Source: Escherichia phage ZH4 | Reading direction: 5' to 3' (one strand) | Length of the DNA stretch: 39,496 nt | Sequence record: OM355495.1 | Part shown: positions 33,497-35,639 of the stretch, piece after piece | Layout of the letters: the number at the start of each line of letters is the position of its first letter | Position numbering within the stretch: the stretch's first letter is position 1 | Position numbers and translations under genes: made by a program | The notes under the pieces: model-generated | Told to the model about the DNA's origin: nothing | Databases searched by the model: none | Seen by the model: only the letters and a program-made list of their open reading frames with translations

Positions 33497-33646
33497 TCAC
33501 TCAGTGTGCGAACTGTCGTACATGCTATTGCGGACCTCATAGACCACTTTCAAGAGACGCATAGCCGCATCGTGGTTTAACTGCCCAGTCTTGACCATAA
33601 TCCGGGCGTAGGTGACGTGGTGCTGGCAGAGACCATAAGTTACCAT
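33497..33646 (-). CDS. Small ORF, 49 aa, translationally coupled to Ocr (TAATG overlap)
   Basis: Own translation [49 protein letters not shown]; no RBS evaluated; low confidence. Confidence 0.3.
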   Translation of the reverse strand: MVTYGLCQHHVTYARIMVKTGQLNHDAAMRLLKVVYEVRNSMYDSSHTE

Positions 33647-34152
33647 TACTCGCAGTCCTCGTCAGCCGCAGGGTCGAACACTACGTTATCGTCGATGTCT
33701 TCGACTTTCAGGTGGCGACCTATCACATAGTGATCCTTGGCACATGCAGTAGCGACCTCAAGAGACACAGCTTGCTCAATGAGTACACCTGTCTTAGCGT
33801 CGACTACCCAATACTCATCCTCCTCGTCGCTCTCTTCAGCCTCAAACCATACCACATCCGAGCTATTAGACACGTCGTTATAAAGCGCCTCATAGATGCG
33901 AGCTTGCAGTATACGCGTTACGTCCTTGGTCTCAGGCATCAGCCCAGAGTCCTCAAACTCATGGTCTATACCATCAGCAGCCATCACCGTAAAAATCTCG
34001 TGGTAATAGTGCGGAACCTGACCGTCTACGACTTCATGCAGCGCATCGTGGTAGTCATCGCTTTCAGCTATTTCGTCGTACTGAATACGCTCGTTAAATG
34101 CTTTAACGGTTGCGGCCAGCAGCTCATAGTATGCGTTAGCGTTACGTTCCAT
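33646..34152 (-). CDS. ocr: Ocr-like DNA-mimic anti-restriction protein (T7 gp0.3 homolog) with a C-terminal extension, 168 aa
   Basis: [66 protein letters not shown] matches T7 Ocr ([66 protein letters not shown]). First gene after the host promoters. About 50 extra C-terminal residues beyond the acidic tail. Confidence 0.9.
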
Positions 34153-34345
34153 AGTTATATCCTCTCAAAGTTGTTTGTGTATGTTAGTGACTATCAGTCA
34201 GGGCCTTCAGATGTAGACTCAAAGACCCTGTAGTTAGTCGCTATCGGCGCACATTAAGAGTTTATCCAGATTATTAAAGAGCATTCGCGTTGGCTGTCGT
34301 CGCCGTGCTATCCCGTTTCAGTGTTGGGACTCACCGTTGTTTCGA

Positions 34346-34382
34346 TGTGGTACAGCTTACAGCTTTTAAAGGAGGCTGTCAA
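34346..34382 (-). promoter_or_regulatory. Host sigma70-type early promoter (T7 A3-like): -35 TTGACA, 17-nt spacer, -10 TAAGCT, then GTACCACATCGAAACAACGGTGAGTC
   Basis: Minus sense TTGACAgcctcctttaaaagctgTAAGCTgtaccacatcgaaacaacggtgagtccc; the downstream segment closely resembles the T7 A3 initial transcribed region (GTACCACATGAAACGACAGTGAGTCA). Confidence 0.65.
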
Positions 34383-34494
34383 CCTGTTATTCTTTTATGC
34401 GATGAGTGACCGAATTCGACTCATGGCTAGTGCCTTATCCTTGGCTGGTCTCGGGCAGGTTTCTCGGTTCCTATCCCTACGCCATCTTGCTACG

Positions 34495-34530
34495 TGGTAC
34501 ATATTACTTTAAGTCGGTACATCTTGTCAA
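34495..34530 (-). promoter_or_regulatory. Host sigma70-type early promoter: -35 TTGACA, 18-nt spacer, -10 TAATAT, followed by GTACCAC
   Basis: Minus sense TTGACAagatgtaccgacttaaagTAATATgtaccacg, about 350 nt upstream of the Ocr gene; near-consensus hexamers. Confidence 0.7.
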
Positions 34531-34779
34531 CTACTTTCTGTCATCTGCCTGTTTTTCGTATGACTTATCAGGCTGTCTACTTGACCGGGATGACCCGGCG
34601 TCTTCACTATCCGGTTGTTGCCGTGTCGTGTTGACGGAAGCTATTAAGCCACAATCTAGGACTGTAGTCAATAGTTAATTTGAAATAATATTGATTAAGC
34701 TATCGTCGGCCCATGGTGACTAAGATGATATAGTCTTTGACTAACATGTCTTTGACCTTAAGTCTATATCTTTATGTCT

Positions 34780-35270
34780 ATTAACTGTAGGTCTCTGACT
34801 GTAGGTAATGGCTTTACCGACGGTCTGTGACTGTAGGTTGTTGGACTGTAGGTTGTTGGACTTATGGTTATACAGATAAAGACTCGGAGACAGACCAATA
34901 GTCCCAACCTATCGTCTCCACCTCCACCGATAGTCATGACCTATCGTTGACAAAAGGTATTGACAGCCGGTCCAACCTTATGATATACTGAAGGTAGGGC
35001 CACCCTTGGTCTGGACTGAAAGAGGGCCTGCGGGGGAGACTTGAGGTTCTTGAACTATGAGATGTGGTCTCAAACTTTTGGTCCAAAACTCATCGTCACT
35101 ACTGCAGTCCACAGCCACTGTAGGTCAAGGACCGTAGGTCAGGCGACACTAGGATAGACCAATAAGTAGGATGACCCTAAGTGAGCTTCTATTAAGGTGT
35201 TACCTAAAGTCCTTGACTACAGTAGCTAAGGTCAGTAGAGTAGCGTCAGCTATGAACTGACCTTAGGTCT
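34780..35270. repeat. Repeat-rich non-coding region containing the predicted physical genome ends and collapsed terminal repeat (ACCTACAG / GACCTTAGGTC-type short repeats)
   Basis: No credible ORFs. Multiple CTGTAGGT/CCGTAGGT copies and GACCTTAAGTC-like palindromes. Lies between gene 19.5 (right end) and the early promoters (left end), analogous to the T7 terminal-repeat-proximal CCTAAAG arrays. Confidence 0.5.
34947..34990 (+). promoter_or_regulatory. Sigma70-like promoter on the opposite (plus) strand: tandem TTGACA boxes, 18-nt spacer, -10 TATACT
   Basis: Plus sense cgTTGACAaaaggtatTGACAgccggtccaaccttatgaTATACTg, inside the terminal region and pointing away from the early genes. No downstream ORF. 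Confidence 0.4.
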
Positions 35271-35299
35271 TCCGCTCATGAATCGTTACCATGATTGCG

Positions 35300-35458
35300 T
35301 TAATTACACTGAGACACCAGAGAACATACGAGAGTCTCGACCCACCCGACCCACTGACTTCCAGCAGTAACGCCAGCAGTAAGTAGAACAGCAGCAAGAA
35401 ACCTGTATGTAGCTCGATTGGTCGCCAGAGCTTTAAGTACAGCTTTGGTCTTTGCCAT
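35300..35458 (-). CDS. gp19.5-like small protein, 52 aa
   Basis: Own translation MAKTKAVLKALATNRATYRFLAAVLLTAGVTAGSQWVGWVETLVCSLVSQCN; the TYRFL.. hydrophobic core resembles what I recall of T7 gp19.5; lies downstream of the right-end promoter as in T7. Below track cutoff. Confidence 0.45.
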   Translation of the reverse strand: MAKTKAVLKALATNRATYRFLAAVLLTAGVTAGSQWVGWVETLVCSLVSQCN

Positions 35459-35639
35459 ATGCTACATACCTCCTGTATCTATGGTCGGTGACTATCTGTA
35501 TTGGAGGGATTATGATTAATATCACCCTCCTTCCATCGGTGCAAGCCTTAGGTAAGAACTCGGAGTCTGCCTCCTAAGGTCTTGCATAAAGTCTGCATAT
35601 GTATATTCACTACAGTAATACTATAAGTAACCGGGGGGT

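Follow-up and report, generated by a model that had tools for sequence, protein, structure and literature searches.

Promoters A2 and A3, their GTACCAC discriminator and a putative boxB-boxA-like leader in the early control region of Escherichia phage ZH4

The early region of Escherichia phage ZH4 (sequence record OM355495.1; the window analyzed here is the whole stretch of 39,496 bp) raises the question of why two host-type promoters upstream of an Ocr-like gene are followed by the same seven bases, GTACCAC, and whether the sequence conserved beyond them has a function of its own. An original prediction, made from the letters alone, had placed two tandem strong promoters for host RNA polymerase (RNAP) at 34346-34530 on the minus strand, had taken GTACCAC for the beginning of the transcribed sequence as in T7 promoter A3, and had proposed such a function. 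The interval corresponds to the second and third (A2 and A3) of the three tandem early promoters of a T7-group phage, a known kind of element. The reading that is on balance probable is that GTACCAC is both a selected discriminator and a recombination joint, and that the leader behind it is a boxB-boxA-like antitermination signal. The proposed downstream function is best explained by the leader hairpin and boxA together with the dual role of GTACCAC, and a separate function is likely to sit in the leader RNA and not in the promoter start region.

Early promoters and the GTACCAC discriminator

Three sigma-70 promoters are found on the minus strand, A1 at 34671-34635, A2 at 34530-34493 and A3 at 34382-34346, all upstream of the Ocr-like open reading frame (ORF) and pointing to it, with the RNA polymerase gene further downstream, a layout as in T7, T3, EcoDS1 and BA14. 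A2 consists of the -35 hexamer TTGACA (34530-34525), an 18-nucleotide (nt) spacer, the -10 hexamer TAATAT (34506-34501) and the discriminator GTACCAC (34500-34494), followed by a predicted +1 G at 34493. In A3, TTGACA (34382-34377), a 17-nt spacer and TAAGCT (34359-34354) precede GTACCAC (34353-34347), with the start predicted at A 34346. The original prediction had correctly located TTGACA-18-TAATAT-GTACCAC (34530..34494) and TTGACA-17-TAAGCT-GTACCAC (34382..34347) on the minus strand, had recognized them as host-type early promoters upstream of the Ocr-like first gene, and had noted GTACCAC after both, as at T7 A3; the two sites are homologous to A2 and A3 of T7 and T3. It overlooked A1 (34671..34635), whose counterpart is annotated in EcoDS1, and the location of A3 inside a 147-bp insertion/deletion unit between the two GTACCAC copies. 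A1 was identified through homologues that match it in position and sequence, namely a "host RNAP promoter" annotated at 469-505 of EcoDS1 and A1 of T7 and T3. It comprises TTGACT (34671-34666), a 17-nt spacer, CTTAAT (34648-34643), the discriminator AGCTTCC and a predicted +1 G at 34635. Its -10 lacks the usual A at position 2, which leaves the exact hexamer uncertain, and GTACCAC is absent from it.

The hexamers of A2 score 10/12 against the consensus, and its homologue is the annotated EcoDS1 promoter at 609-647. Those of A3 score 9/12, with just 3/6 for the -10 TAAGCT, and the consensus scan did not pick A3 out. The same 37-nt stretch carries the annotation "host RNAP promoter" (834-870) in phage BA14, and the discriminator and start of A3 align with those of T7 A3, whose start is annotated at 750. 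The consensus scan of the region returned 9 sites against 8.7 +/- 3.2 by chance, no excess over the chance level. The evidence for the promoters consists of homology, position and the expert annotation of homologues, and the strength claimed by the original prediction is not readable from these hexamers. The composite pattern TTGACA-N16-18-TAnnnT-GTACCA occurs twice in the window against 0.00 expected (100 shuffles).

The arrangement is that of the early (class I) promoters A1-A3 of T7 and T3, where three sigma-70 promoters likewise follow one another rightward in the stretch from the left end to gene 0.3. Their A2 and A3 also have TTGACA, a TAnnnT -10 and a 17-18-nt spacer, GTACCAC is present at T7 A3 and at T3 A2 (TAAGAT-GTACCAC) with GTACCAT at T3 A3, and their leader further downstream shares the hairpin, boxA and RNase III site with that of the window. 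The T7 spacers, however, are unrelated to those of the window, and T7 A2 lacks the 7-mer that follows both A2 and A3 here; neither T7 nor T3 has the 147-bp unit, and the -10 of the window A3 (TAAGCT) is weaker. The Kayfunavirus EcoDS1 (EU734172) has three annotated host RNAP promoters at homologous positions, whereas its A2 and A3 are without GTACCAC and its A2-A3 interval differs from that of the window.

As the annotated start of T7 A3 (750) is the A directly after the 7-mer, GTACCAC is by homology untranscribed and occupies positions -7 to -1, in place of the transcribed start that it had been taken for. It is the hallmark of the A2/A3 promoter family, a 7-bp discriminator with C at -1 and a purine at +1. 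The match to T7 A3 further downstream is real, with 23 of 26 columns identical, one indel and two mismatches between ATCGAAACAACGGTGAGTC and T7 743-768 (GTACCACATGAAACGACAGTGAGTC). T7-group leaders were collected from viral contigs by the downstream hairpin loop and boxA pattern alone, so that the sample is unbiased for the promoter, and exact GTACCAC follows the -10 in 30 of 44 distinct leaders. Another eight depart from it by one or two changes (GTACGAC, GTACCAT, GAACCAC, GTACCGG and, with one inserted base, GTACCCAC), and unrelated discriminators are confined to the EcoDS1 type (ATACGGC, ACACGGC) and one other leader. Across these genomes many different pairings are seen on the two sides of GTACCAC, which links five or more unrelated spacer/-10 modules with ten or more initial transcribed sequences, and within the window the sequence common to A2 and A3 is limited to the hexamers and the 7-mer. 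The bare 7-mer is not over-represented in the window (four copies against 5.4 expected). An island of identity amid flanks diverged beyond recognition argues for selection on GTACCAC or for a role in crossover, probably both, and the motif is probably kept by selection on initiation.

Promoters with GTACCAC outside the T7 group were considered and set aside: about half of 110 distinct pattern matches lie in unrelated contigs, have no common flanks and were deemed chance, the chance level for such 16-base matches being an estimate for a very large collection. A literature search for GTACCAC and the T7 A3 discriminator returned nothing specific, and host promoters are not discussed in the SH3 genome paper. 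Gp5.7, which is known to repress A1-A3 in T7, has its binding site around the -35 element (PMC5569994) and was rejected as a reader of the 7-mer. In one leader (L105, IMGVR_UViG_3300045988_000100), an 18-nt insertion with a small hairpin (GCUACC-ACG-GGUAGC) stands directly after GTACCAC, another rearrangement at this joint; the same leader is the only one in the sample with an altered loop (CAUUGAAA) in the downstream hairpin.

A 147-bp promoter cassette bounded by GTACCAC

The GTACCAC copies of A2 and A3 lie 147 bp apart. Between them is a 140-nt core (34354..34493, minus strand) made of the leader of A2 and the complete upstream half of A3; with one GTACCAC it makes up a 147-bp insertion/deletion unit. 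In close relatives such as PE3-1 (L011) and Peacock (L003), exactly this unit is absent, and a single hybrid promoter is found in which the upstream half of A2 is joined through GTACCAC to the leader of A3. The core is 92-96% identical in Teseptimavirus (L039) and Berlinvirus-type (L055) backgrounds whose flanks (200 nt on each side) are 40-70% identical. Of 50,697 phage records, only 45 contain it (93-98% identity), and these belong to Kayfunavirus, Teseptimavirus and Berlinvirus. The Berlinvirus BA14 (EU734171) has the promoter of this cassette, equivalent to A3 of the window, as the fourth of its four annotated host RNAP promoters (834-870), and differs from the window in that number and in the imperfect 7-mers that flank the cassette (GTACGAC, GTACCGG).

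Recombination and deletion between short direct repeats are known for T7. The simplest reading is that the cassette was exchanged by recombination at the short conserved -10/discriminator stretch during co-infection. A transposon or miniature inverted-repeat transposable element was rejected as an explanation, terminal inverted repeats being absent; the cassette carries no gene, and no terminator-like hairpin with a U-run is present at it. The nearest described analogue is the PeSL cassettes of T4-type phages, where short early-promoter motifs lie at the boundaries of insertions, deletions and replacements and shuffling by recombination has been proposed (PMC2839356, PMC4122927). Here too a conserved promoter motif is found at insertion/deletion boundaries between related genomes, as in the PeSL system (PMC2839356). 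PeSLs, however, border gene cassettes and pair a promoter with a terminator-like stem-loop, whereas the unit here is a 140-nt piece of promoter plus leader without a gene, and its joint is the 7-bp discriminator.

The A2 leader of the window, which forms part of the cassette, has no significant fold (z=-0.55) and no rrn similarity. Also inside the cassette, at 34395-34424 on the minus strand, is an imperfect inverted repeat, ATGAGT...ACTCAT, around an EcoRI site (GAATTC, 34417-34412). The same bases are readable as a 9-codon mini-ORF (MSRIRSLIA) with AAGG 8 nt upstream, and BA14 has GTG for ATG at the start of the mini-ORF, a change that fits both an RNA hairpin (as a G-U pair) and an alternative start codon.

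The leader RNA, boxA and the likeness to rrn operons

The transcript predicted from A3 opens with a lineage-specific stretch of 12 nt (AUCGAAACAACG, 34335..34346, minus strand), which varies in sequence and length and falls into at least ten types among T7-group leaders. It is followed by an invariant GUGA (34334-34331) and a hairpin (HP1) formed by GUCCC (34330-34326), the loop AACACUGAAAC (34325-34315) and GGGAU (34314-34310), GUGA and HP1 together covering 34310..34334 on the same strand. Among 35 distinct T7-group leaders, the bases from +1 to about +12 differ in sequence and length, whereas GTGA and the loop positions CA-TGAAA are invariant in an ungapped alignment; the invariant part of the loop is CACUGAAA. 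Five of the six stem pairs tested are changed on both sides yet still paired, and the GUCCC/GGGAU stem of the window is replaced by UCACC/GGUGA in T7, by GGCGG/CCGCU in T3 and by AGCCU/AGGCU or GACC/GGUC in others. The covariation score was reached by 0 of 500 shuffles, and sliding the partner by 1-3 columns lowers pairing from 90% to 24-36%. RNAalifold recovers HP1 independently, as the only consensus structure, and HP1 is present in the minimum-energy fold of the window. The proposal of a conserved function downstream of the promoters thus stands in so far as more than plain promoter sequence is conserved; what is conserved is not one block that begins at the start site, as the first bases of the transcript vary.

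An Rfam scan of 33500-35500 with E up to 10 returned no family for HP1, only two chance-level, irrelevant matches. A candidate pseudoknot between an upstream CNGUG and CACUG of the loop is 95% paired across the 35 leaders and shows no double changes, since the loop is invariant; a scan allowing loop variation yielded a single variant, a C-to-U change that keeps a G-U pair. Between HP1 and boxA lies a second small hairpin (HP2, GGC-GACGACA-GCC, 34292..34304, minus strand), which is present in the fold. Its counterparts, read by eye, are CCC-GACGACA-GGG in one relative, GGUC/GACC in T7 and T3 and GUGC/GCAC in Berlinvirus; by the same reading the stems appear to covary and the loops to be conserved within lineages.

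The boxA-like element TGCTCTTTAATAA (34271..34283, minus strand), followed by TCTGG, lies 26 nt downstream of HP1 and shares 12 of the 13 bases of the E. coli rrn boxA TGCTCTTTAACAA. Exact GCTCTTTAACAAT is found at this position in nearly all related early leaders. By analogy with the rrn operons, the hairpin and boxA may constitute a boxB-boxA-like antitermination leader. To our knowledge the role of boxA in T7 has never been settled. A G/U-rich boxC (UGUGUGGG in E. coli) is not seen in the window, where boxA is followed by TCTGGATAAACTC, sharing just CTG with the rrn sequence CTGTGTGGG. The boxB of lambda is GCCCUGAAAAAGGGC. Lambdoid nut sites likewise combine a boxA-like sequence with a hairpin loop containing CUGAAA, but they have boxA before boxB and a 5-nt GNRA-like loop, whereas the phage order is hairpin then boxA, as in rrn, with a loop of 9-11 nt (11 in the window); the leader is thus not of the lambdoid nut type, and no search for an N-like protein was made.

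In more distant T7-like leaders, a short hairpin with a GNRA loop stands just before each boxA. Many of these leaders (L019-L037) have two or three copies of boxA, several of them standing behind a TTGACA promoter and a short hairpin whose loop is of the GNRA type, e.g., GCC-GAGA-GGC or GACG-GCGA-CGUC, and the series of promoter, small hairpin and boxA seems to be a repeated building block well beyond the T7, T3 and K1F lineages.

The early region was compared with seven rrn leaders of E. coli MG1655, with 24 comparisons in the leader shuffle tests. For the rrnB sequence from P1 to boxA, the best blastn-short match in the whole window is the A1 region (rrnB 23-123 with window 34692-34584), extending from the UP tract to about +50 over 110 columns at 64.5% identity (E=0.004). 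The discriminator and transcribed part of the window A1 resemble rrnB P1 with z=7.2 (p<0.001, 1,000 shuffles), the common pieces including GACACGG, AACAAC and GCCGGGTCA. The A+T-rich tract upstream of A1 (TCAATATTATTTCAAATTAACTA, 34672..34692, minus strand) is in the register of the rrnB P1 UP element in this match and may act as an UP element. One close relative shares 20 of 24 positions with the rrnB P1 UP element, and the discriminator and start of a close relative share 23 of 28 columns with rrnB P1. By eye, T7 A1 resembles the start of rrnH/E P1 (ATCGA...GACACGGCG) and the Berlinvirus-type A1 resembles rrnD P1 (GTTGAGA); the former is weak in the shuffle test (p=0.03) and the latter not significant (p=0.14).

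For A3, the T3 leader (L005 713-760) and the rrnH/D leader from P2 to boxB have CGACAGTGAG and CTGAAAGCCGC in common (z=6.6, p<0.0005), and the T7 leader (L004 756-781) shares CGACAGTGAG and CTGAAAG(CCGC) with the rrnH/D boxB region (p=0.0035). In both phages the shared blocks are split, relative to rrnH/D, by an 8-nt phage-specific insertion that is the 5' arm of the phage hairpin. From these sequence comparisons, the likeness to rrn appears real for A1 and for the A3 leaders of T3 and T7, and suggestive for the A3 leader of the window; the A2 leaders gave no such match. In overall plan, too, the rrn operons resemble the phage region: their promoters stand in tandem at a distance of about 120-150 bp, the first has an A+T-rich UP tract, and the leader has a hairpin followed by boxA (GCTCTTTAACAA). 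Discriminators in both end in CCAC (GCGCCAC in rrnB P1, ACGCCAC in rrnH P2, GTACCAC in the phage), which is a resemblance only. The phage differs in a less G+C-rich discriminator, in the 8-nt insertion and the CACUGAAA loop of its hairpin, in a second hairpin between the first and boxA, and in the lack of a clear boxC. It is conceivable, if only as a tentative idea, that the T7-group early control region is assembled as a mosaic from modules that were copied from the host rrn control region or have converged on it, with A1 modeled on P1 (UP tract and first 50 transcribed bases), the A3 leader on the boxB-boxA leader of P2, and GTACCAC on the rrn-type "...CCAC" discriminator. The polymerase that pulls in the genome would then become a fast, Rho-resistant complex of the rrn style, and the 7-mer would be the joint by which the 147-bp cassette spreads between genera.

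Several points weigh against a selected discriminator followed by an rrn-style antitermination leader. The start sites in this phage are placed by homology. GTACCAC is not required, as no A1 has it, T7 A2 has ACAAATC, and A2 and A3 of EcoDS1 have GATTCAC and ATACGGC; its constancy in A2 and A3 could be a by-product of recombination there and not of selection on initiation. The boxA of the window carries a C-to-T change (AATAA for AACAA). This variant recurs in L010, L021 and L027, the first of which also has a second, canonical boxA further downstream. In the rrn operons boxB is reported to be dispensable, and a search for boxA in T7 found, in the library covered, no experimental report of boxA function in any T7-group phage. 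The resemblance of the window A3 leader to the rrnH leader is weak (p=0.033 before correction for the 24 tests). The loop CACUGAAA was not found beside an rrn-type boxA in 185,579 bacterial genomes, and a scan of the same genomes for CACTGAAA at 5-35 nt before an rrn-type boxA gave one unrelated match in Lachnospiraceae; as the phage loop is absent next to rrn-type boxA in the scan, there is no evidence of a direct donor. When the A3 leader of T3 was compared by blastn with 5,426 E. coli genomes, just short boxA-type matches came back, with E of about 1, a level that carries no information in a database of that size.

Other explanations were weighed as well. Under pure descent or hitch-hiking, GTACCAC and the match to T7 A3 would reflect ancestry and recent recombination, with no further function. 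The cassette has clearly moved horizontally, the hybrid promoters show recombination at the 7-mer, so that each recombinant carries it by construction, and functional early promoters without it exist. Against this, the flanks have diverged into at least five spacer classes and at least ten initial transcribed classes around a 7-mer that is exact in most leaders (30/44), and neutral descent predicts neither the pairing of the HP1 stem kept through double changes nor the invariance of its loop and of GUGA; we regard this account as unlikely. Quite unlikely as well is that the conserved transcript start acts at the level of DNA and initiation, through abortive cycling, promoter escape or the choice of start site, and not as folded RNA. 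Initial transcribed sequences are reported to modulate escape at phage promoters (PMC12464699), and the discriminator and start of a close relative match rrnB P1 as described above (23/28 columns). The first 11-26 nt, however, vary in sequence and length among lineages with the same promoter and hairpin, and the conserved part starts only at GUGA, at least 13 nt downstream, with covariation of the RNA type.

HP1 may be real yet unrelated to boxA and Nus factors, serving as a protein-binding site, as a signal for RNA stability or processing, or as part of the CNGUG-CACUG pseudoknot. The invariance of the loop and GUGA points to recognition of a specific sequence or to tertiary pairing, 95% pairing is seen in the candidate pseudoknot helix, and the CACUGAAA loop is not found in the bacterial rrn leaders scanned; conversely, that helix shows no double changes, HP1 always lies 20-50 nt upstream of boxA in the sampled leaders, though this spacing was in the search pattern, and T3 and T7 have two exact blocks in common with the rrnH/D boxB region, which leaves such an unrelated role with a low probability. 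Direct copies of the 7-mer on both sides of the cassette look superficially like a target-site duplication, as would fit a nuclease, recombinase or repressor that recognizes GTACCAC and moves the cassette or shuts the promoters off. Such a factor is very unlikely, given the lack of terminal inverted repeats, a length of 140 nt that leaves no room for an enzyme gene, the imperfect flanking 7-mers of BA14 (GTACGAC, GTACCGG), the binding of Gp5.7 around the -35 and not at the discriminator (PMC5569994), and the chance-like character of promoter-plus-GTACCAC matches outside T7-group contigs, which share no flanks. It is barely credible that no promoters are present here and the hexamers match by chance: consensus-type sites are no commoner than in shuffles and the A3 -10 matches at 3/6, but mapped promoters of T7 and annotated ones of T3, EcoDS1 and BA14 are homologues of these sites by sequence and position, the composite pattern has zero chance expectation in the window, and dozens of genomes have kept the -35, the -10 and the 7-mer.

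Genomic context and early transcription

The whole window is a complete T7-group genome, reversed and permuted, of a K1F/SH3-like Kayfunavirus. The early region is on the minus strand and is 94-97% identical to that of Kayfunavirus phages, e.g., Citrobacter phage SH3, ST31 and IMEP24, and the same strand carries the terminase gene, the RNA polymerase gene and the Ocr-like first gene. The last of these (33646..34152, minus strand) encodes an anti-restriction protein of 168 amino acids, identified from its ORF and from homologues annotated as ocr-like anti-restriction proteins. Residues 1 to about 103-117 are matched by most related loci and the full length only by SH3-like phages; the protein of this phage has an extra C-terminal segment of about 50-60 amino acids that is very acidic at its start. 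Just 5' of the gene, a long hairpin in the fold (approximately 34185..34243, minus strand) aligns with the T3 region annotated "RNase III recognition site R0.3" and is a probable RNase III processing site of the R0.3 type. Between A1 and A2, a non-coding block (AAGTAGACAGCCTGATAAGTCATACGAAAAACAGGCA, 34546..34582, minus strand) upstream of the A2 -35 is near-identical in T7, T3 and Kayfunavirus amid diverged non-coding sequence, and might serve A2 as an upstream element or the A1 transcript as an RNA signal.

If GTACCAC is a selected discriminator and joint and the leader acts in antitermination, the events of early infection could run as follows. The sigma-70 host polymerase would start at A1-A3 once the leading end of the genome enters the cell, and would read rightward, along the window's minus strand, past Ocr as far as the phage RNA polymerase gene. 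GTACCAC would set the start, through C at -1 and a purine at +1, and tune initiation, and would also provide the short stretch of homology for recombination between promoter halves and leaders, A3 having been gained in, or being losable with, the 147-bp cassette between its two copies. The transcribed sequence would matter mostly as RNA, the variable 12 nt, GUGA, HP1, HP2 and boxA forming an rrn-style leader whose hairpin or hairpins and boxA would load NusB/NusE and partner factors onto the host polymerase. Early transcription would then be Rho-resistant in the untranslated leader of about 200-480 nt and in the early genes, and transcription-driven genome entry would be protected likewise.

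The promoter call itself is routine, as the early starts of a Kayfunavirus sit where T7 biology predicts them. The cassette, the hairpin with its invariant loop and the likeness to rrn are concrete and testable and, as far as could be found, apparently undescribed. An exact 7-bp discriminator across unrelated promoter halves marks the seam of an intergeneric promoter cassette and provides a minimal example of the shuffling of regulatory modules. The entry of the T7 genome is driven by transcription, and if boxA and the hairpin recruit Nus factors, this would explain how the long untranslated early leader and transcription-driven genome entry are protected from Rho.

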